The notes under the pieces: model-generated
Database searches by the model: none
What the model was told of the DNA's origin: nothing
The model's input: only the letters and a program-made list of their open reading frames with translations
Translations under genes and position numbers: made by a program
Virus record (IMG/VR): IMGVR_UViG_2554235189_000017
Location: 1 to 38,614 of that record
Source of the DNA: a virus
Taxonomy: Duplodnaviria; Heunggongvirae; Uroviricota; Caudoviricetes
Strand: one strand, 5' to 3'
DNA length: 38,614 nucleotides
In this document: positions 1-38,614 of the stretch, in pieces
Numbering within the stretch: position 1 is the stretch's first letter
Layout of the letters: every line of letters begins with the position of its first letter

Positions 1-207
1 TTTACGCACACCGTATACCTGGTGATTTTCATCGTATACGCGCTGTATCTCTTTCTTCAGCCAGTCATCGTGCTGCGCACGGGCACTGCGTTTATCCGGA
101 TGATGTCGCTGTTGCTGACAATGGTAATACGTTGACGGGGCAATATGCAGTTCGCTGCATACCGGTCCGACCCCGTACTGCTCACGCAGCTTATCCAGCA
201 GTGGCAT
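1..207 (-). CDS. IS3-family transposase OrfB, N-terminal part (partial, continues past window start)
   Basis: ATG at 207-205 overlaps orfA stop; translation [23 protein letters not shown]... resembles IS3-family OrfB N-termini. Confidence 0.7.
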   Translation of the reverse strand, partial: MPLLDKLREQYGVGPVCSELHIAPSTYYHCQQQRHHPDKRSARAQHDDWLKKEIQRVYDENHQVYGVRK

Positions 208-533
208 TATTTTTTCCAGAGGCGGTCGAACTCCGCCTTCGCAAAATAAGCGGAAGCCTGGCGAAGGATATCGTTACTGCGGCGCAGTTCACGATTTTCA
301 CGTTCCAGCTCTTTCAGACGCTGACGTTCAGCGGTGGTGAGTCCACCATCACCACTCCCGGTATCCCGCTCATGCTGGCGAACCCAGACACGCAGAGTCT
401 CCGGCGTACAGCCAATCTTTGGGGCAATGGAACAAATTGCCGCCCACTGTGAGTCATATTCATCCTGACTTTCCAGAACCATACGAATCGCCCGCTGACG
501 GACTTCGGGGGAAAAACGAGTATTTTTAGTCAT
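207..533 (-). CDS. IS3-family transposase OrfA (HTH DNA-binding subunit)
   Basis: 108 aa [22 protein letters not shown]...[30 protein letters not shown], recalled as near-identical to IS629/IS3411 OrfA. Confidence 0.85.
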
Positions 534-558
534 CCTGTTTACCTCTTTCTCAGGGAGT

Positions 559-2988
559 TTAGTCTCCAGGATTTCCGGGGCGGTTCAGGTAGGTCTTACT
601 GCCGTTTCTCATGTCAGGAGCCTCATCATCTGGATCAGAAAAATTATACCCAAGAGTTAAATCATTAACCGTGGCATTATTCCCTGTTATTCCTTTGACT
701 TGATTAACACTTAACGGTATGTAATTAAACCCTGCAAAAAGCGGTGTTAACTTTTCTCTAAATAAAAGGCCTGGTGGGTATACTAACGAAGGTGTACCAT
801 CATATGTCACTGAGATAATATTAAGTCCCTTTTTAAGGGTTCCAATGCACGTTGTTTGTTTGCCTGTAAATGATGTTAGCCCATTGCTGGCAACTTTACC
901 TGATAGATAAGAAGAGTTCCTGATGTCATTGAGAATGACATTGAACTGGTTAACACGATCTGATGAAGTATAAGTTGGGTTATATGGCTCAAATAATGTT
1001 ACAGAGATATCGCTTGTATCACTCCATACAAAATACCGACAAATAACATTTTCATTTGAAGGCGTAATCCTTCCCCATCCACCAAGTGCATCAAGATAAT
1101 CACCTCCACTTAATATCGAAATTGATGGATAGTATCTGGTATTTGAAGGGTATCCAATACCAATAAATGAAAGTTGAGTAGTAGGGATTAGGTTCTTATT
1201 TTTTACAGCTGTATAAACGCGCTCTTTTAATACCTCTTTTGCAGCATAAGCACCGATGTAAGCATGCCCTATCGTTGATGGATGACTCTGATCAAAGACA
1301 GTTCCTCCATCACGCTTGGAAATATCAGAGATAGAATACGTACCAATGTCAGCATAAGCGTCAGTTGTGGCAACTGACAGATCCAGAAACTCAACTTTTT
1401 GAAAAAGACGCTCGATACGCTTCTTAATAGCTGCCTCCAGAAAAGCCTTTGGTGCATCATTATTGTTTACAGTAACAAAGCATATAGGACAACCATATCC
1501 CCATGATTTTCTAATCAACTTTTCAAATTCATGAAAATACGCTTCAAATCCTATTGTTGGAAGTATTCCATTGTCATTAAAACCAAGGCTTATAAAAAGA
1601 ACATCAGGAGCTTTTTTTCCATACGCAGCATTCTGGAAAAATCCATAGTCGAAGTTTTCATAACCCCAACCTGTGGCTAAAGCCTTTCCTGAAGAGGCAC
1701 AGTTGTATCCTTTAAAAATATTTGTTGTACTGTCAGATAGCATGTTCAGGCAATCAGTGAAGATCCTGAACCAGGAATACTTTCCGCCATTGAGGTTGTG
1801 GTTGTGGTTGGTTGAATTAAGATTACCATCGCTATCAGTTGGGTTCGGGGTCCATCCTGAACTATAGGCTCCATCCGTTATAGAATCACCAATGATACCT
1901 ACATGGCAATCTTCTATAGTTGATTGGTAACTCTGCTTATTTGCAAATTTAGCAATTGTTCCAAGAGCAGTAAAATCAGGGCCATTGTTAGATAGCCCAA
2001 CATCAAAAACATGCTCATTACCCCATTTGTCTCTTGTGAGAATTTTACCTTCTCCAAGAAATTTAGTCACATCATCTGACGGTAAAAAATTACACCTGAT
2101 GGTTACATCTTTTGGGATGTAAATCTGACCGGGGAAAGCATAAATTGCACTTCTGTTGTCAGTTGTCGTGTTAATAACGACATTTGGAACATAAAATATT
2201 GACGTTGCGTCAGTTCTATATTGTCCGTTAACAAGCTCAGATCTGAGAACCGCATCCCCAACACCTCTCCAAGCGCCAGGGCCGACACCACCAGCAGTGG
2301 TAGGAGTTGATCCAGGCGGAACTACTTTGGGCAGTGGCCCGTCCCATCTGTAGTATTCGCCGTTGCTTTCCCAGAGAAGAACATCGTTAAGATAGATGAG
2401 GGTATTACCCAACTCAAAAGATTTCTTCGTGTTATATCCATACAATCCATTTCCTAAGGTTTCAATAATGGTGCTAAGTAAGGAACTAAATTTTGCATAA
2501 AGATCATCAGTATATTTTTTTGTAGCAGCATCTTGAGGAAGAGATGGATCACGAAGGTTTCTAATGTAATTTGAAAGCGCGTCATAAAAAATTGCTACGT
2601 CAGTTGGCTTTCTTAAAGCCAACTTATCATTTCTTAATGATTGTTGAATGAGCATTGTAAGTTTATCAAACGCATCCTCATGCACCTCAGCGAAGAACTT
2701 ACCCTGGTTGCGCAGATCGGTATCCTGCGTAACCGGTAGCTCTCTTGATATAGAAATCTGATAACCGTTAGCCAACGCCTTCGACAGAATTACATTGCCG
2801 CCGTTATACCCTCCAGCACCAGTGACTATGTAATCAGTATCAAGAATCAGCTCTGTGATGTTCTCGTTCAGGTCAACAACCTGCACTACTAAATCAGATT
2901 TCTGGAAAATCCTGAAGGTATAAGGGAATGCCGTTGTAACACCGTTACCGGTGTATTCGTTGTGGTCAACTTCGGTTGATACCGTCAT
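559..2988 (-). CDS. Tailspike/tail fiber with conserved N-terminal virion-attachment domain and central SGNH/GDSL hydrolase domain (putative O-antigen deacetylase); 3' end replaced by IS sequence
   Basis: 809 aa; N-terminus [17 protein letters not shown] resembles a conserved tail-fibre N-domain; GDSITDG esterase motif mid-protein; the last ~8 codons and the stop lie inside the IS inverted repeat. Confidence 0.75.
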
Positions 2989-3091
2989 GTTAAATCTCCA
3001 GATAGTCGCAGCACCCGTTGCGCCGCATATCCGGTTATTTTATTACCTAAAAACCATATATGGATAAGCAACCCATAAATACGAACAGATA

Positions 3092-3163: not shown

Positions 3164-3182
3164 ATTGCATGGAGAAGATAAG

Positions 3183-3440
3183 ATGCAGCGGTATCACTAT
3201 CCACTGGAAGACGGATTTACCGAAAGGATTCACACGCCGGGAGGCGTCAGGTCACTGGTGGAGGGATCGCACTTGATGAAATTACTCCGGGATCTCGATA
3301 AGGATGGATTTAATGTCGATGGCCCACTTGCCGAACTGACTGCACTGATTAACTACGTCACCAGCTCACAGATGACTATGCAGGATCTGCAAACACATCT
3401 CGACTATTGTGCCGAACAATTACGAAAACAAACCAGATAA
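3183..3440 (+). CDS. Small SOS-regulated antirepressor-like protein (Tum-like), 85 aa
   Basis: GGAG RBS 8 nt upstream; LexA box immediately upstream; sequence LMKLLRDLDKDGFNVDGPLAELT...DLQTH aligns with the C-terminus of the downstream Bro-N antirepressor (LMNLLNQLQEDGHDVSGAAAELT...DIQTH). Confidence 0.6.
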   Translation: MQRYHYPLEDGFTERIHTPGGVRSLVEGSHLMKLLRDLDKDGFNVDGPLAELTALINYVTSSQMTMQDLQTHLDYCAEQLRKQTR

Positions 3441-3454
3441 GATTTGAAATCACC

Positions 3455-3508
3455 AAGAGGAGTGCTTATATTTACCTTTGCGGTAAATTTACATCGCACT
3501 CCTCTTGT
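3455..3508. repeat. 12-bp inverted repeat (CAAGAGGAGTGC / GCACTCCTCTTG) enclosing an operator-like TTACCtttgcGGTAA (3472-3486)
   Basis: Read directly; a second hairpin CGGGCACTGG/CCAGTGCCGG follows at about 3520-3544. Confidence 0.6.
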
Positions 3509-3577
3509 GCCATAGTAATCGGGCACTGGCAAAATCCAGTGCCGGGATTGGCGTCCCGAGTTACTAAGTGGCGCATA

Positions 3578-3600
3578 CCACGCCAGACGTGGTTTTTTTA
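3578..3600 (+). terminator. Putative rho-independent terminator (CCACG-loop-CGTGG + T7)
   Basis: Short GC stem followed by TTTTTTT. Confidence 0.45.
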
Positions 3601-3755
3601 TGCGTTAAGCACAGCCATATCCGAATTATGGTGGGCTGGGCAGGGGTCCGAAAGGACGCCGGTACCACTTAGGCCGGTACGCCAACCTTGTCCAGTTCAC
3701 CACCAGTAATTGGCGTTGCGGTGGTGATTAAAATCACTAAGTGGAGATAACCACC

Positions 3756-4466
3756 ATGGCTAATGCTCAAACTGCCATCTTCAAATTTGAATCTGTTAAC
3801 CCTATCCGTTCCATCATTATCGATGGCCAACCATGGTTTGTAGCCCAAGACGTTTGTAGTGCGCTGCGTATCCAAAACGTCACCCAATCACTTGAAAAAC
3901 TGGATGATGATGAAAGGTCTATGTTCAACATAGGGCATGAACATCGTGCAATTTTTGATAGCCGAGTAAAAGAGATCAACATCATCTCCGAGTCAGGCCT
4001 CTACACACTGATCCTCCGCTGCCGCGATGCGGTGACACCAGGCACTATCCCCTACCGCTTTCGTAAATGGGTTACAGGTGAGGTTCTTCCTCAGATCCGC
4101 CGCACCGGAAGTTACATTAAAAACTCGCTCCCGCAGGAAGAACGCATAAAGATGGTTGCCGACCAGGTAGCCAACGCCACAGCATCAGCAGTGATGCAGG
4201 CAATGAAGATAGAGAACAAAACCTACAGTGCCCCACTGAAGCCCGGCTACCGTAGCCTGATTCATTCGCCGTCTGGTGTTCTCGGCCTGACTGAGAACTC
4301 ACTGCTGATGAATCTGCTGAACCAGTTACAGGAAGACGGGCATGATGTATCGGGCGCAGCGGCGGAGCTGACCACCATGTTCTGCTACATCGTCGGTGTG
4401 AGCAAATGCCTGCGTGATATCCAGACGCACGCGGAGTACATCAACGACAAGGCAGGGTTCTTCTGA
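3756..4466 (+). CDS. Phage antirepressor, Bro-N/AntA-like N-terminal domain with antirepressor C-terminal domain
   Basis: GGAGA RBS then ATG 3756; N-terminus AIFKFESVNPIRSIIIDGQPWFVAQDVCSAL is Bro-N-like. Confidence 0.75.
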   Translation: MANAQTAIFKFESVNPIRSIIIDGQPWFVAQDVCSALRIQNVTQSLEKLDDDERSMFNIGHEHRAIFDSRVKEINIISESGLYTLILRCRDAVTPGTIPYRFRKWVTGEVLPQIRRTGSYIKNSLPQEERIKMVADQVANATASAVMQAMKIENKTYSAPLKPGYRSLIHSPSGVLGLTENSLLMNLLNQLQEDGHDVSGAAAELTTMFCYIVGVSKCLRDIQTHAEYINDKAGFF

Positions 4467-4532
4467 CATGACGGCGGCACAGGGATGTGCCTTTAAATAA
4501 TTCTGTACAGATTGCAGGTGAATAGCGTACTA

Positions 4533-4547
4533 TTACCCCAAAGGTAA
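4533..4547. promoter_or_regulatory. Operator-like palindrome TTACCccaaaGGTAA upstream of the AT-rich two-gene operon
   Basis: Perfect TTACC-N5-GGTAA. Confidence 0.45.
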
Positions 4548-4664
4548 GAAAGTTGATTTGTAACATTTTAGTTTGTAGTTACCGTGATGGTTTTGCTGCA
4601 GAAAGTTAACTAGTCAAAATCACACCGTATGTAAGTCACGTCTGTTCCCGTATGGGAGGATGAT

Positions 4665-4883
4665 ATGTTTAAATTTGATATGCAACTCAACCAAAACTAT
4701 GCCTCTTTTTACCATCCAGAAACTGGTAAAGCTGTTTTCGTTGACTCTTTCGATAATGAAGAATTTGATATCAGAATTGGGACCCTACGCCAAAGTAAGC
4801 ATGTTGCTACTGTACGTGCATCCAATGATGATGAATTAAATCAAAAAATAAGTGAGGCGACCTCCCGTTATCTATGTCTATAA
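4665..4883 (+). CDS. Hypothetical protein (72 aa), first gene of an AT-rich two-gene operon
   Basis: GGGAGG RBS then ATG; ends 10 nt inside the next ORF (translational coupling); AT-rich versus flanks. Confidence 0.55.
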   Translation: MFKFDMQLNQNYASFYHPETGKAVFVDSFDNEEFDIRIGTLRQSKHVATVRASNDDELNQKISEATSRYLCL

Positions 4884-5251
4884 CAGAACAACAACTCATT
4901 GATCTTGAGGATGAGATTAACGAGATCTTGCAAGAAGATGCGGCAAGAATTCACTTTTCATTTCATGCAGCATATGAACGCCTGAACGACGAGAGGAACA
5001 AACCGCCAATTACTCTTGCTGAGCTTGAAGATGTGTTTAAATCGTTTATATCTGCACATCTGCAGACTGTTTTGGATTTTGCCGAAGGTACAACTTTCAC
5101 CATAAAGTGCAACAAAAGCGCCCTTCATTTTCCTTGCGCCATTGTACACGAAAGAGAGTTTGGGAAAACGTGGATTATCCAAAACGTCATTACAGCCATG
5201 AGGAAAGTGGGATTCAAGTCTAAAGATTCTATTATCCTCGAAGTTAATTAA
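4874..5251 (+). CDS. Hypothetical protein (125 aa), second gene of the AT-rich two-gene operon
   Basis: Overlaps upstream ORF; acidic helical N-terminus; followed directly by a terminator. Confidence 0.55.
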   Translation: MSITEQQLIDLEDEINEILQEDAARIHFSFHAAYERLNDERNKPPITLAELEDVFKSFISAHLQTVLDFAEGTTFTIKCNKSALHFPCAIVHEREFGKTWIIQNVITAMRKVGFKSKDSIILEVN

Positions 5252-5273
5252 GCCCGCGCCGCGGGCTTTTTTG
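5251..5273 (+). terminator. Rho-independent terminator (AGCCCGCGCCGCGGGCT + T6)
   Basis: GC-rich hairpin plus TTTTTT immediately after the stop codon. Confidence 0.7.
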
Positions 5274-8509: not shown

Positions 8510-10312
8510 TTAACCTCTCAAGAAACACGCCACAGCAACATCAAACAGGCTGGAATCCTGTATTGCCTGCTCACTTTCCCTGTTCGCTTCATCCAGTACT
8601 TCACGCGCACTGCGCGATTGTGGATTACCATCATCATCCAGCACGGTGATTATCATGTCCGGAGATTCAAGCAGCGAGTCTTCAGCTATACGCAGATCAA
8701 TATCTCCTGCCGGATCTGCCATCATTTTTTGTTCTGTCTGTTGCAATATCTTACCGGGCTCAAAAGGAGCTACTTCGTCTGGCGTCCTGACCTCTGCTGT
8801 TTTATAGAATGAAACAGCCTGAGCATTAAGTTCACTTTCTGCCTGCTGTCGTCGTGCCAGTTCTGCTCGAGCTTCAAAAAACTGACCGCCAGGCTCATGC
8901 GGTGCCAACGCGTTACGGGAAAATTCCAGGCGCTCTTGTGCCTGCCGGATTCGTTGGTCAATATCGCGAAGTCTGACCTGTTTATCTGATCGAGCACGAG
9001 ACAAAGCTTTACCGCTACCGGTTGGCTCTTCTGCAAGAATTTGTGCGCGCTGTTCAGTGAGATTTTCAATAATTCGTTGGCTATTAGCGATTTCAGACTG
9101 GTAAACCTGTCTATCGCCACGCGGCAAAAGCTGCGCGGCCTGTTCTTCAAGCAACCGATTTTCTATAGCGCGCGCCGTTACTCCATCATCTACAGATGAC
9201 AGAGCCTCATTAACTGCCTGAGACAGCAGACTCTTGCGCCCAGGAATTTCACTGAAAGATGCAGACTCAACAATGCTGGCAACGTCTACAGGTCTCCCCT
9301 CGCTAACATCAGACATAGCTTTTCTCAGAGCCTGAATGTGAGAATTGCGCGAAAGCACGTTGATCGGCACGCCTGGCGCAATATCAATTTCAGCATGATG
9401 AGCGGCATTCGCCGCCAGTGCAGCATCAACATCAACTGGTGAAAAATTTGGTGCGCTTGTAGACTCGCCGCGAGAGTTAATAAATCTGCCGACACCACCA
9501 AACGCCACCCCAAGAACAGCATCAATAGCAATTGCCTGTCGATCCAACACATCATACTGGTTATCCATTTCGCTATAGCCACCATCACGAAGCGTTTTTG
9601 CAGTAAGCCCACGCTGTGCCATACCGAACGCAATATTTGTACCTGCGGCATAGGCAATATCTGGCGTTGCACGTACTGCTGTTGCTGCGGCGCGTCGCAC
9701 TGAACTTTCACCCGTCCGCGCAAGCTGGGCCGCCACACCTTCCGCCAGCGCACCACCAGCACGTAACCCGAGGCTCATAGGGATCAGTGTTCCGGCACCA
9801 GCAGTAATACCCTGCACTAATCCTGCTTCCTGCGCCGTCCTGAAATCAACACCCTGTGCTGTCAGCCGTTCAAACTCAGAAAAACCCTGTAGCGAAGTTA
9901 CCGCCGCTGCACCTCCGACCGGACCACCGAGCGTTGTACCGACAACAGCCTGCCCGCCCATATCGAACAACCCATAAAGAACCTGCCCGGCGGTTCCGGT
10001 TGTCGCGGCATCAGGCGTCAGCCGCTTAACCTGCTGCTCTGCTAGTTTTCTCTGCTCGGCAATGTATGAAACTGAAGTGTCATTGAGCGAGGTGTTTTCG
10101 TTAACAAACTGAGCAATCGGGGATACGATTTTATCCATCCCTGCCCATAGCAACTGGTCTGGCTTTGCCACCAGCCCGGAGTACAAACCAGACAATGCCG
10201 CTCCTACAGAATTGTCGAAAAAACCAACATCGCTGTTAAAGCCAGCTGGATTTGATGCTGCTTCGTCAAGCTGCTGATTCTGGTTTACTGGATTAAGGCC
10301 AAAGTAACTCAT
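8510..10312 (-). CDS. Internal virion protein (600 aa), Gly/Ala-rich
   Basis: ATGA start/stop overlap with upstream gene; position in structural operon. Confidence 0.55.
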   Translation of the reverse strand: MSYFGLNPVNQNQQLDEAASNPAGFNSDVGFFDNSVGAALSGLYSGLVAKPDQLLWAGMDKIVSPIAQFVNENTSLNDTSVSYIAEQRKLAEQQVKRLTPDAATTGTAGQVLYGLFDMGGQAVVGTTLGGPVGGAAAVTSLQGFSEFERLTAQGVDFRTAQEAGLVQGITAGAGTLIPMSLGLRAGGALAEGVAAQLARTGESSVRRAAATAVRATPDIAYAAGTNIAFGMAQRGLTAKTLRDGGYSEMDNQYDVLDRQAIAIDAVLGVAFGGVGRFINSRGESTSAPNFSPVDVDAALAANAAHHAEIDIAPGVPINVLSRNSHIQALRKAMSDVSEGRPVDVASIVESASFSEIPGRKSLLSQAVNEALSSVDDGVTARAIENRLLEEQAAQLLPRGDRQVYQSEIANSQRIIENLTEQRAQILAEEPTGSGKALSRARSDKQVRLRDIDQRIRQAQERLEFSRNALAPHEPGGQFFEARAELARRQQAESELNAQAVSFYKTAEVRTPDEVAPFEPGKILQQTEQKMMADPAGDIDLRIAEDSLLESPDMIITVLDDDGNPQSRSAREVLDEANRESEQAIQDSSLFDVAVACFLRG

Positions 10313-12822
10313 TGCGGAATATCTCCGGAGAATCTCTGACGCTTCTGTGTCAGATTAAGAACAACGGGAGAACCATCATCTTTCAGTAGATAACCAGTAC
10401 CAAGTTTCACCAGGTACTGACTATCGCCGTAACTTTGCAAACCATACTGACCAGGCGGTGTTTTTATCCCGGAGCCGACAACTTGTTCATTCCAAGCCTG
10501 ATTAACCCGCTTATCGAATTGCTCTGCAGACATTCCCCACGGCAAAAGGACATTCCCCATTCCGTTATAGTCATGCACGCCACCTGTAGCTACGTTAACA
10601 GCCTGTTTCCAGACATCATTGTCAATTTCGCCTGATACCACGCCTTTTTTCGCCATCACACCAGCGTAATAATCCTTTGCGATCTCGTATGCCATTGATG
10701 CTCCCTGAGCGTCACCAGCAAATGCATCCTTCACCATGTCAGAAAACTCAAAGCGAAGATCAGCATCTTTAGGCATCGGAATACCTTTCGCGTCATCAGT
10801 ACCTTTACGAGCCGCCGCACCAGCAAGAATTGTCTGCGCTGCGGTTTCAGGAGACACGGAAACATCAGGATTAAACCAGTTTTTTTCTGCCAAAATACCA
10901 CCAGGCTTATCCATCAGTATCCCGGCAACGGCAGCAGATGGAGCGTTGGCACTGATCTGCTGTAGTGCTGACATATACACCTGCCCACCACCAGTGCTCT
11001 GCCTGATGGTATCGAGATATGCTGCCTGTTGGGAAACTGGCGCATCACGAAAGAAAACACCGATCTGATTGGCCTCGTCTTTGGAAAAGAACGTCAGTGG
11101 AGTGCCATATGACTTAGCAAGGTCACTGACCTGAGCGGCACGCAAGGCAACGCTCTGTCCAAAGTTATCCTTATTGCTCATGTCGATAGGCTTTGCCTGT
11201 CCGGCGGCAAGAGAGAACTGCACAGGATCCGATTGCCGCTGCTTTATCACCTGATTTGCAGCCGAAACAACGTTGTCATAAAGAGCTGCGCGTGCCGCAT
11301 ACCCCTCCCCTGTCTCACCAGTATCCGGGCGTAATTGCTCAACATATGCTGTAATGCTGCTTGTCGGCATATTGCGGAAAGAGCCTATATACTGTCCGGC
11401 GATCTGCGTATTTCTGAACTCGGTATATCGCAGGTTTCCTTCTCTGACGCCATAAGCTGCAATAAAATCAGCCTCACCAGGTGGGTTAGGAAATTCAACG
11501 CCACGCATATACGCAGCCGTCGCATCGCGAACCTGGCTGTCAATCATCGTTTTATATTCAGCCTGCTGCTGCCGACGAAGTTGATCCGCCTGTCGCATAA
11601 AACTTGCCTGCGCCTCAGGAGATGCCGCATCGAATGCTGCATTACCGGTATAGCGTTTAGTGTTGGTTGGAATTGTTGATAAACCAAGTGCTGCACTGAC
11701 ACCAGCAGTTAACTGCTGATCACTGTATGGCTGGCTACCGTTCTCATGATGGATAATGGCTGCACAAAGCGCCTTCAGGGTATCAGGATTAGATGCATCG
11801 AGAGGTTCATCAGCAGAAACGCCAAGTTGTTCGCACACTGCTTTGATATACGACATAGTGTCATTTTTATCAGTAGGCGGTGCCCAGCGATTAATTATCT
11901 CGCTGACGGTATCAATACCCTGCCTCTGATACGACATCAGGTTCCGCCCTAATGCACGAATCCCGTGTTCAGGTGTTTCGAATTTAGCAAATCGACCATC
12001 ATCACCGGTCTGGCCTACCCACGGATTAGTTTTGCTGTATTCGAGATTTCCTGGGTTATTGTTGCGTATGCCACGGGCACGCTCGGAAGAGTCACTATCT
12101 GCTACAGCACGGCGAGCTCCAGCAACAGTATCACTTAACTCGCCATTACTTTGGATGAATGCGGTCGCATTGTTTGCCGACCACTGGGACAATGCGGCAT
12201 CAGCAACCTTCTCTTTAAACTCGATTTTCTTGGCCTGTATTTGCTCGTCGCTCCAGCCATGCGCAATGCCGTAATCCTCAATTTGCTGGAAAGTTTGCTT
12301 ATTAGCCAATACGTATGCGGCGTTGTCGCCATACAATGCTGCGGCATTTTTACCATTGTTCAGCAGCGTCGCCTGAAACTGGCCTTCTTCGTAGGCATTT
12401 ATTTGCCCTATCTCGTGCCGCCCGGCCTGCGTAGTGAACTGAATACGCTGCTGCTGCGCCTGCTGCATGAAAGCATTACGAGCCTGTTCATCCGGCAGCG
12501 ACATAGCCAGTTGTTCGATCTGAGCATCAAACTGCTGCGTATACTCCTGACCTTTTCCAATAGCATTTTTCCCTTTCAGGTTAAGCAAACCTGTTTCAGG
12601 GTTATTCAGCAGATCGCTGCTTATCTGACTGAGGTTAAGAGATGCCTCCTGAGCCAGAGCGATATTGGCACGCTGTTTTGCCTGCCCCAAAACATCAATT
12701 GCCTCTGTCCCTGCCCGAACAAAAGCATCACCAATACCTTGCTGAGAAAACGTCTGCAAGCCTGCTGACTGAACTCCACGACTCTCAACCTGACGTCCGG
12801 ATACTGTTGGTACGACTGGCAT
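10309..12822 (-). CDS. Internal virion / ejection protein (~837 aa), possibly with an enzymatic domain (RNNNPGNL motif)
   Basis: Start placed at MPVVPT (AGGAG RBS; TAATG overlap with upstream stop) rather than the track's 12897. Confidence 0.55.
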   Translation of the reverse strand: MPVVPTVSGRQVESRGVQSAGLQTFSQQGIGDAFVRAGTEAIDVLGQAKQRANIALAQEASLNLSQISSDLLNNPETGLLNLKGKNAIGKGQEYTQQFDAQIEQLAMSLPDEQARNAFMQQAQQQRIQFTTQAGRHEIGQINAYEEGQFQATLLNNGKNAAALYGDNAAYVLANKQTFQQIEDYGIAHGWSDEQIQAKKIEFKEKVADAALSQWSANNATAFIQSNGELSDTVAGARRAVADSDSSERARGIRNNNPGNLEYSKTNPWVGQTGDDGRFAKFETPEHGIRALGRNLMSYQRQGIDTVSEIINRWAPPTDKNDTMSYIKAVCEQLGVSADEPLDASNPDTLKALCAAIIHHENGSQPYSDQQLTAGVSAALGLSTIPTNTKRYTGNAAFDAASPEAQASFMRQADQLRRQQQAEYKTMIDSQVRDATAAYMRGVEFPNPPGEADFIAAYGVREGNLRYTEFRNTQIAGQYIGSFRNMPTSSITAYVEQLRPDTGETGEGYAARAALYDNVVSAANQVIKQRQSDPVQFSLAAGQAKPIDMSNKDNFGQSVALRAAQVSDLAKSYGTPLTFFSKDEANQIGVFFRDAPVSQQAAYLDTIRQSTGGGQVYMSALQQISANAPSAAVAGILMDKPGGILAEKNWFNPDVSVSPETAAQTILAGAAARKGTDDAKGIPMPKDADLRFEFSDMVKDAFAGDAQGASMAYEIAKDYYAGVMAKKGVVSGEIDNDVWKQAVNVATGGVHDYNGMGNVLLPWGMSAEQFDKRVNQAWNEQVVGSGIKTPPGQYGLQSYGDSQYLVKLGTGYLLKDDGSPVVLNLTQKRQRFSGDIPQ

Positions 12823-22435: not shown

Positions 22436-22512
22436 GTGGCATTAGCTCAGTTGGACAGAGCAACCGCCTTCTAAGCGGTTGGTCGCAGGTTCGAATCCTG
22501 CATGCCACGCCA
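22436..22512 (+). tRNA. tRNA-Arg (anticodon UCU), phage-encoded
   Basis: Hand-folded cloverleaf: acceptor GTGGCAT/ATGCCAC, D-arm GCTC...GAGC, anticodon loop CTTCTAA, T-arm GCAGG-TTCGAAT-CCTGC, encoded CCA. Confidence 0.85.
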
Positions 22513-37357: not shown

Positions 37358-38614
37358 TTATTTATTACTGTCTTCCATCCACTTCTCAAACTTCGACGGG
37401 GAGAACGGAATCAGATCCGTATGCTCCCCGTTAATCCAGGAATCAATCATATCGGCCCACTGCTGCAACATGTAGGCGCGCTGTCTGGCGTATTCCGCTT
37501 TGTTATATACGGCGCGCACACCTTTCTGCTCATGTGCCAGAGCCTTTTCAATCCAGTCTGAAGGATAACCAGCCTCATGCAACAACGTACTGGCTGTACG
37601 GCGCATATCGTGTACGGTGAAGCCCTGAATATGCTCACCATCTTCATTTATTATTTTCACCGTTCTGTCGATCAGAGAGTTCAGCGCGGCATTAGATAAT
37701 GGCTTCCGGAAATTGTAACGACCAGGAACCAGATATCCACTTCCACCAGCGCACATCTGCAACCCGATCAATATATCCTGAGCCTGTTTAGGCAGGTAAA
37801 TAATGTGCGCCCGGCTTCCCTTCATGCGGTCTGAAGGAATTGTCCATGTCCATTTTTTAAAATCTATTTCATCCCACGTTGCATTGGTGAATTCGCCTTT
37901 ACGAACCATAGTGATAAGCACCAGCTTTAAAGCCATTTTCATAGTGCCCATAGCACCAATGGCATCCAACGTGCGGAAGAACAGGCCAATTTCTTCTGGT
38001 GTCAGTGTTCGCTCTCGTGGTTTAAATATGGCGATAGACGAAGGTTTAATGTCAGCTGCAGGATTAAACAAACCATGACCACGGTCATTGGCGTGACGGT
38101 ATACGCTGCTGATGATCTCCCTGGCCTGCACTGCTGTTGCCCGGCCACCGCGTTCGACAATCCGGTCACACAAATCACGAACCATCGATGTGGTAATTTC
38201 AGCCATCATTTTGTTGCCAAGAACCGGAAGTATGTCACGGTCGATCACCGCCTGTTTCATTGCCCGGGTACTGTCAGCCAGAATGACGTGCTTCAAATAG
38301 CTGTCGGTATGTACCGCGAATGTCTCAGCCCCACGGATCTTTTTGATACCGTCACGTTTAGCCGCAGCAGGCGACTGGCCTGCCTTTAACAGCTTTTTTG
38401 CAGCAATGAGTTCTTCGCGTGCTTCCGCCAGGCTGATACCGTCACGACCATACTGACCAATGACCAGCGTTTCCCGTCGTCCGTTAATGCGGTAGTCGTA
38501 CCGGAACGAGACAGAGCCGGAGGTAAGAACAGCGACATACAGCCCGTCACGATCGGAGACCTTGTACAGTTTGTCCTGCGGCTTGAGGTTTTTTAATTTT
38601 GTATCGGTAAGCAC
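37358..38614 (-). CDS. int: Tyrosine integrase (P4-like); start at or just beyond window end
   Basis: 418 aa; N-terminus LTDTKLKNLKP typical of P4-type integrases; HDMRRTAST box in C-terminal catalytic region. Confidence 0.8.
   Translation of the reverse strand: MLTDTKLKNLKPQDKLYKVSDRDGLYVAVLTSGSVSFRYDYRINGRRETLVIGQYGRDGISLAEAREELIAAKKLLKAGQSPAAAKRDGIKKIRGAETFAVHTDSYLKHVILADSTRAMKQAVIDRDILPVLGNKMMAEITTSMVRDLCDRIVERGGRATAVQAREIISSVYRHANDRGHGLFNPAADIKPSSIAIFKPRERTLTPEEIGLFFRTLDAIGAMGTMKMALKLVLITMVRKGEFTNATWDEIDFKKWTWTIPSDRMKGSRAHIIYLPKQAQDILIGLQMCAGGSGYLVPGRYNFRKPLSNAALNSLIDRTVKIINEDGEHIQGFTVHDMRRTASTLLHEAGYPSDWIEKALAHEQKGVRAVYNKAEYARQRAYMLQQWADMIDSWINGEHTDLIPFSPSKFEKWMEDSNK

Follow-up and report, generated by a model that had tools for sequence, protein, structure and literature searches.

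We show that the minus-strand open reading frame at positions 559-2988 of the window (the whole 38,614-nt stretch of viral DNA analysed here) is a phage tailspike gene of the known G7C gp63.1 esterase type, present as a copy that has been truncated by an insertion sequence. An IS3-family element has transposed into codon 801 of a 914-codon gene, with duplication of the 3-bp target sequence ACC. Taken as a whole, the explanation that best fits the data is a modular esterase tailspike that is disrupted by an IS and likely disabled, and we hold this account to be probably correct.

The tailspike gene of a phiV10-like prophage

The window is a phiV10/epsilon15-like prophage on contig ASXQ01000028.1 of Escherichia coli IMT8073, a porcine atypical EPEC strain of serotype Ont:H7, and position 1 of the window is position 1 of the contig. 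Nucleotide identity to phiV10, PAS61, phiv142-3 and HEMP4 is ~97%; it covers the virion genes and the early region and reaches as far as the integrase on the right, with phiV10-like phages matching at this level from position 3000 onward. The gene under study is the single receptor-binding tailspike gene of this Uetakevirus-type prophage, and it lies between an antirepressor block and the lysis cassette, in synteny with phiV10.

A preliminary description of the sequence held that the gene had been separated from the rest of the virion operon by inserted plus-strand cargo. Opposite-strand genes (3165-5251, plus strand) do lie between the two, and the following elements were recognised in or after this block.

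3523-3599: isrK-type RNA, within the plus-strand block
3624-3707: C4 antisense RNA, within the plus-strand block, directly upstream of the Bro-N gene
3741-4466, plus strand: Bro-N antirepressor gene
5250-5268: strong terminator-like hairpin after the Bro-N block

The idea of an insertion did not survive comparison with phiV10, in which the same opposite-strand block (p22, p23 with Bro-N, and p24), bounded by terminators, separates the virion operon from the tail fibre gene. Because the block is conserved in phiV10 we rejected the cargo reading; it is an ancestral antirepressor (immI-like) module of the phiV10 lineage and not a recent insertion.

Domain architecture and catalytic residues

The open reading frame comprises 809 codons. 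Its features, and those of the native gene to which it belongs, are as follows.

2996-2999, minus strand: Shine-Dalgarno sequence GGAG, read off the sequence, 7 nt 5' of the ATG at 2988
588-2988, minus strand: native 5' portion of the tailspike gene, 800 of 914 codons plus the opening base of codon 801
2494-2988, minus strand: epsilon15/phiV10-type (Uetakevirus) virion anchor, aa 1-165, assigned by 82-88% identity, PHROG and 8ck1
2254-2436, minus strand: Tail_spike_N domain (CBA120 TSP1 / G7C gp66-type), aa 185-245, Pfam PF18668, E=6e-17, 61.9 bits against a cutoff of 25
1999-2190, minus strand: 'G7C gp63.1 domain 3' (Gp63_3rd_G7C), aa 267-330, PF21562, E=1.8e-31, 108 bits against a cutoff of 27
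1219-1908, minus strand: SGNH esterase domain, aa 361-590, blocks I, II, III and V aligned with G7C, alpha/beta in the model
1882-1884, minus strand: Ser369 codon, within the GDSITDG motif (aa 367-373, window 1870-1890)
1687-1689, minus strand: Gly434 codon, SGNH block II
1576-1578, minus strand: Asn471 codon, SGNH block III
1291-1293, minus strand: Asp566 codon, SGNH block V
1282-1284, minus strand: His569 codon, SGNH block V
760-1158, minus strand: galactose-binding-like/CBM-like domain (gp63.1 'domain 5'), aa 611-743, PF21988 G7C_GBD, E=1.3e-8, 35.1 bits against a cutoff of 27, aligned to 4qnl
589-759, minus strand: linker or short beta region ahead of the missing terminal domain, aa 744-800, from the AF2 model of the intact protein

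The tail-fibre anchor that had been proposed for the N-terminus is well founded: residues 1-163 are 82-88% identical to the N-termini of the epsilon15, phiV10 and TL-2011b tailspikes, PHROG tail fibre/tailspike families match aa 1-164, and the anchor matches the N-terminus of 8ck1/Dpo31 at E=2e-24. Models of the intact 914-aa allele (AF2 monomers, mean pLDDT 83) were used to describe the remainder of the protein. In the intact form a helical neck lies between the anchor and Tail_spike_N, and the chain ends in a galectin/CBM-like beta-sandwich at approximately aa 802-914. Pfam has families named after the domains of gp63.1, and RefSeq already labels the present protein 'SGNH/GDSL hydrolase family protein'.

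The preliminary description had compared the protein with gp63.1 by analogy, and the relation proves to be one of homology, since aa 191-744 match PDB entry 4qnl (G7C gp63.1) with a phmmer E-value of 5.8e-102 and identity is 36% over aa 190-743 (tblastn). Structure prediction, suggested at that stage as a check, points the same way: a Foldseek search with the AF2 model of the intact allele placed 4qnl first (E=1.8e-65, TM 0.65-0.69, 786 columns), with the second-best PDB match far weaker (E=2e-18), and it also matched the free-standing GDSL proteins 4rsh (TMt 0.78) and 9otv (TMt 0.71). In an alignment of gp63.1 and 15 homologues all SGNH blocks are present (I, G-D-S369; II, S-S-G434; III, G-x-N471-D; V, D566-x-x-H569), and the residues correspond to those of G7C as S369=S276, G434=G345, N471=N382, D566=D470 and H569=H473. 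An alignment of 40 sequences shows no variation at G367, D368, S369, N471, D472 and H569, and conservation of 90% or more at G434 and D566. The catalytic triad on which the esterase proposal had been made to depend (S369, D566 and H569) is complete, as are the oxyanion residues G434 and N471. Homology thus supports the intact protein as a predicted enzyme, an SGNH esterase tailspike with a Ser-Asp-His triad, and by analogy with characterised homologues it would be a deacetylase with O-antigen as its substrate.

We also considered that the SGNH domain might be a binding module only, a catalytically dead esterase used as a lectin. The generic Pfam GDSL models do score slightly under their gathering cutoffs (27.3 against 32.9 for PF13472, and 23.1 against 23.6 for PF00657), which speaks for this reading, but the catalytic and oxyanion residues, five in number, are all in place and are conserved throughout the family, and homologues with the same residues are active, so that we regard a dead enzyme as very improbable. 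A beta-helix depolymerase was detected neither by Pfam nor by fold search; the esterase is the sole catalytic domain found by these means, and a hidden beta-helix depolymerase was rejected for want of Pfam or fold support.

An IS3-family insertion in codon 801

The best database match to the protein is an intact E. coli allele (P0001) of 914 aa, to which it is 100% identical up to Y800. Beyond this residue the window protein reads LNRPGNPGD and stops, whereas the intact allele runs on for 114 more residues. At the nucleotide level, positions 1-2401 of the gene (window 2988-588) show 0 mismatches against the intact-allele locus, and identity ends abruptly at window 587, from which point the sequence is that of an IS terminal inverted repeat, TGAACCGCCCCGG... 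The gene originally placed at 559-2988 can therefore be retained as an open reading frame with its GDSITDG motif, but not as a complete gene, as the native sequence stops at window 588. The features of the insertion are listed below.

1-587, minus strand: IS3-family element, first 587 nt of 1,310 bp; window and contig end inside the element
starting below about 210, minus strand: IS orfB
136-252: ALIL frameshift pseudoknot (Rfam, 120 bits)
207-533, minus strand: IS orfA (HTH_Tnp_1), within 1-587
559-587, minus strand: IS-derived end of the open reading frame, codons 801-809 (LNRPGNPGD; codon 801 borrows the C at 588), stop codon TAA at 559-561, within the IS terminal inverted repeat
588-590, minus strand: left-hand ACC of the 3-bp target-site duplication (gene nt 2399-2401), repeated after the IS right end on ASXQ01000029.1 (positions 60-62 of that locus)

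Positions 1-587 of the window are 100% identical to multicopy elements labelled 'IS3 family transposase' in 3,789 of 5,426 complete E. coli genomes. A complete reference copy, annotated 'programmed frameshift', measures 1,310 bp (a length defined by a match to the right end that allows one mismatch in the reference copy) and has imperfect inverted repeats of ~25 bp (TG...CA) and a 3-bp duplication. By size and sequence we take the element to resemble IS629/IS1203. As a member of the IS3 family it has nothing unusual about it: orfA with HTH_Tnp_1, the ALIL -1 frameshift pseudoknot, inverted repeats and the 3-bp target duplication are all present.

The other side of the insertion is found on ASXQ01000029.1, which opens with 59 nt of the IS right end, followed by ACC and by the last 347 nt of the gene with 0 mismatches. 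An orphan open reading frame of 105 aa, WP_162776592.1, stands at the very start of this contig, which belongs to the same assembly; in a search with the 114-aa C-terminus there was no 100%-identical representative among those listed, and the orphan fragment was found among the cluster members. Downstream of the gene remainder lie two holin genes, a GH19 endolysin gene, an Rz-like gene and then a chromosomal flank shared with the intact-allele strains; there is 1 mismatch in 6 kb.

The window begins at a contig end in a draft assembly from 2013 and the IS is present in many copies, circumstances in which a gene-IS junction could be a chimeric contig end, with the gene intact in the real chromosome. 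Against such an artefact, the two matching IS termini, each flanked by ACC, stand correctly oriented at two independent contig ends and not one base of the gene is missing, this IS also generates 3-bp duplications at other sites, and the two contigs are numbered consecutively in a scaffold-ordered assembly. We put the chance of an artefact at close to nil and rejected an assembly chimera on the strength of the matching IS ends and the target duplication: because the two termini match and are flanked by a 3-bp duplication, the junction reflects a real transposition.

The insertion is simple and recent. Its recency follows from the lack of substitutions in the gene and from the 8 kb upstream, which differ from the intact-allele locus by 5 nt. 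The 809-aa form occurs on one contig only, as expected for a recent defect that has not yet spread, while the 914-aa form occurs on 21 contigs in the same prophage context. Two C-terminal fragments from other genomes proved uninformative, the break being an N-run in one case and a plain contig end in the other. In a separate strain (GCA_958311345.1), an IS911 element is inserted at nt 2188 of the same gene, a different site from that of the IS629-like insertion at nt 2401.

For annotation, the consequence is that RefSeq WP_024215865.1 ('SGNH/GDSL hydrolase family protein', 809 aa) is a fusion truncated by an IS and is best handled as a pseudogene fragment; the rest of the gene carries an annotation of its own, as the hypothetical protein WP_162776592.1. 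For anyone cloning this spike, the 914-aa allele is advised.

Effect of the truncation

The 809-aa product of the truncated gene still contains the anchor, esterase and first CBM domains but not the terminal lectin-like domain; its last 9 residues are IS-encoded, and the remaining 113 codons sit downstream of the IS, ahead of an intact lysis cassette. According to the AF2 model the IS cut the gene nearly exactly at the boundary of the last domain (~residue 802). A cut inside a folded domain was rejected since the model puts it at the start of the last one, and all upstream domains could consequently still fold. The lost domain corresponds in position to the second CBM-like domain of gp63.1.

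This domain is kept in all near-full-length homologues, with P791, G827, G890 and G891 at least 90% conserved. In KP32 gp38 a terminal lectin-like domain is needed for trimerisation and full phage function, and its deletion lowers activity 1,250-5,000-fold. [quoted passage not shown] Judging from these proteins, the truncation most probably does serious harm to trimer stability, to polysaccharide binding or to both. Loss of the terminal CBM/lectin-like domain suggests that the copy is probably unable to serve as a working receptor-binding protein, and it seems likely to us, on the same analogies, that it is non-functional for infection and that the prophage can no longer make infectious particles.

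It could be argued instead that the 809-aa protein is still a working tailspike, in which the terminal domain is accessory, the rest trimerises and the prophage remains infectious with perhaps weaker or altered binding. The position of the cut leaves the upstream domains unbroken, neither the catalytic domain nor CBM domain 5 differs from the intact allele, and the N-terminal helical neck may hold the trimer together. Precedents can be cited as well: KP32 gp38 without its terminal domain, an analogue and not a homologue of the present protein, keeps its specificity and some residual activity, and the spike of epsilon15 can fold when its C-terminal petal domain is missing (preprint 10.64898/2026.07.31.742079). 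We nevertheless consider a working 809-aa spike unlikely, in view of the retention of the terminal domain and its conserved positions in all near-full-length homologues, the predicted placing of both gp63.1 CBM-like domains in the LPS-binding valley, the severe loss of activity and impairment of the phage in the KP32 gp38 case, and the occurrence of the 809-aa form on one contig against dozens for the 914-aa form.

Predicted function of the intact spike

Homology with gp63.1 suggests that the intact trimer would attach to a surface polysaccharide bearing O-acetyl groups, most probably O-antigen, and would strip these groups from it processively with the backbone left uncut; deacetylation would in this way carry the short-tailed virion down to the outer membrane. 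Precedent comes from G7C: its gp63.1 deacetylates O-antigen processively and leaves the backbone uncut, the phage cannot infect without this activity, and host mutants that lack O-acetylation are resistant (PMC10743462). Facts about G7C also come, second-hand, from PMC13082707, PMC6872550 and the epsilon15 preprint cited above.

An alternative substrate is a capsular or other exopolysaccharide, such as a group 1/4 capsule or another O-acetylated glycan, in place of the LPS O-antigen. The SGNH receptor-binding proteins of temperate Klebsiella phages are linked to K-loci, with two confirmed esterases among them proposed to act on capsule, and the host strain of the present prophage is O-non-typeable. 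On the other side, the characterised relatives, namely G7C gp63.1, Possum, PP99 and the epsilon15 petal domain, act on O-antigen, and Uetakevirus receptor-binding proteins are O-serogroup specific (PMC10408124). We judge a capsular substrate to be quite unlikely, and O-antigen remains the preferred candidate.

The genomic setting of the gene invites a further speculation. Lysogens of phiV10 O-acetylate their O-antigen by means of Oac and so shut out related phages. In phiV10 the O-acetyltransferase gene oac directly follows the tail fibre gene, whereas intact relatives of the present prophage have no oac after the tailspike, which fits a phage that depends on acetyl groups rather than adding them for superinfection exclusion. 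Exchange of the depolymerase spike for an esterase-only one within this lineage, combined with the lack of oac, might then be a counter-move, in which an acetyl mark, possibly laid down by rival prophages, is used as a receptor and erased on entry, and the repeated IS hits in the gene would mark lysogens selected to silence surface de-acetylation. Were this so, both the IS629-like hit at nt 2401 and the IS911 hit at nt 2188 would reflect selection to silence the gene. We offer this scenario as a long shot and think it improbable.

The importance of these findings is small beyond correct annotation. The gene in this genome is a recently IS-disrupted copy. The intact protein could be a useful tool with which to detect or strip O-acetyl groups on carrier-strain O-antigen.

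Comparison with known systems

Esterase tailspikes are already established, examples being G7C gp63.1, Possum, PP99, the epsilon15 petal and the SGNH proteins of Klebsiella prophages. The closest structural parallel, gp63.1, belongs to a phage that is virulent and N4-like, where a second protein, gp66, attaches it to the virion (Prokhorov et al. 2017, as cited in PMC10743462 and PMC13082707), whereas the present module is fused directly to an epsilon15-type anchor in a temperate phage. The terminal domains of the two proteins have no detectable sequence similarity, and the window copy lacks that domain entirely; the specificity of G7C is of the 4s/O22 type, which that of the present protein need not match.

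Within the Uetakevirus group, phiV10 p25 and epsilon15 gp20 have the N-terminal anchor in common with the present protein (82-83% over aa 1-161/163) and match it within the anchor only. According to a 2026 preprint, epsilon15 gp20 is a beta-helix endorhamnosidase with an SGNH esterase petal as a C-terminal appendage; in the present protein, in contrast, the esterase is the only catalytic domain found.

The same gp63.1-type module is found on other chassis. The Kagunavirus siphophages Schulenburg, Snoke, Sciku and Shashou carry it at 53% identity over aa 212-799 with a different chassis and anchor, the ~39-kb Escherichia phages Pisces and Penshu1 carry it on yet another chassis, and the N4-like Pectobacterium phages CB1, CB3, CB4 and Nepra have it at 35% identity with other anchors. 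A further protein (P0005) joins a P22-type Head_binding N-terminus to a module 93% identical to the present one. For Possum and PP99, deacetylation of O-polysaccharide is cited as having been demonstrated by experiment, and their relation to the Pectobacterium phages listed here we infer from PMC9569702. When 5,426 complete E. coli genomes were searched with the gene by megablast, the N-terminal anchor alone was matched, at 20% coverage or less; the module is rare or absent in complete E. coli genomes and present in draft assemblies. From sequence comparison the gp63.1-type module has been shuffled onto different virion anchors, none of the other named carriers being a Uetakevirus, which is an instance of the familiar modular shuffling of receptor-binding proteins (PMC10408124).

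The SGNH receptor-binding proteins of temperate Klebsiella phages (PMC13123978) offer a second point of reference, as they too are prophage-encoded and common and work by deacetylation and not by depolymerisation; they differ in being associated with the K-locus, not with O-antigen. With the intact protein, the carriers of deacetylating tailspikes of the gp63.1 type come to include a temperate, epsilon15-like chassis, in line with the recent finding that prophages commonly encode esterase receptor-binding proteins. The one mildly new feature is that an esterase-only module of the gp63.1 type is joined to a Uetakevirus anchor in a temperate phage.

Results

RefSeq carries the tailspike gene as two proteins, with its 5′ part entered as WP_024215865.1 and its 3′ end, stranded at positions 89-406 of the next contig of the IMT8073 assembly (ASXQ01000029.1), entered separately as a 105-aa hypothetical protein, WP_162776592.1. 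These are two pieces of a single IS-disrupted gene. The tailspike gene is also broken, at a site different from that in the window copy, in contig CATRPW010000007.1 of another E. coli genome (GCA_958311345.1). The end of this contig (positions 1-127) matches IS911-family elements at 100% identity, and from position 128 onward the contig is colinear with the intact gene, beginning at gene nucleotide 2188. This break is a second IS hit in the tailspike gene, independent of the one in the window.

A protein search with the tailspike as query recovered the epsilon15/phiV10-type (Uetakevirus) virion-anchor domain together with Tail_spike_N, with 77-92% of residues identical across the N-terminal 31% of the query, in proteins of other E. 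coli prophages (P0072-P0080, P0100-P0101 and P0103), where they are fused to different esterase modules. These modules include 750-aa proteins described as "GDSL-type esterase/lipase" and 673-aa proteins with a sialate O-acetylesterase domain (PF03629). Since several esterase modules are joined to this anchor, several kinds of esterase-type spike seem to be common on the Uetakevirus-anchor chassis.

At the other end of the prophage, and within it, the following features were located in the window:

37358-38614, minus strand: integrase-like ORF, matching the integrase region of phiV10 and PAS61
3444-3516: promoter-like sites
3523-3599, plus strand: isrK Hfq-binding RNA (Rfam, 67 bits)
3624-3707, plus strand: C4 antisense RNA (Rfam, 66 bits)
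3741-4466, plus strand: Bro-N antirepressor gene
5250-5268: terminator-like hairpin
22436-22512, plus strand: tRNA-Arg (anticodon TCT)

The integrase-like ORF reaches the right-hand end of the window. With int at one end and the IS-cut spike at the other, the window therefore contains almost the entire prophage; on the side opposite to the integrase, the prophage adjoins a yfgF-like (MASE1/EAL) gene, ppx and ppk.

Discussion

The Bro-N gene is directly preceded by the isrK and C4 RNAs, and the arrangement resembles a c4-ant immunity module of the P1/P7 type within a phiV10-like prophage. The phiV10 annotation has the Bro-N gene only at this place. The virion and terminase genes around the tRNA-Arg are encoded on the opposite strand, and a tRNA-Arg is annotated in the related O157 typing phages 9 and 10 as well. 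In prophages with an intact esterase spike, the holin gene follows the spike directly after a 141-nt gap (10745-10886 in L004, the contig with the intact 914-aa allele); in phiV10, by contrast, this position is occupied by the O-acetyltransferase gene oac (9637-10653), which functions in superinfection exclusion.
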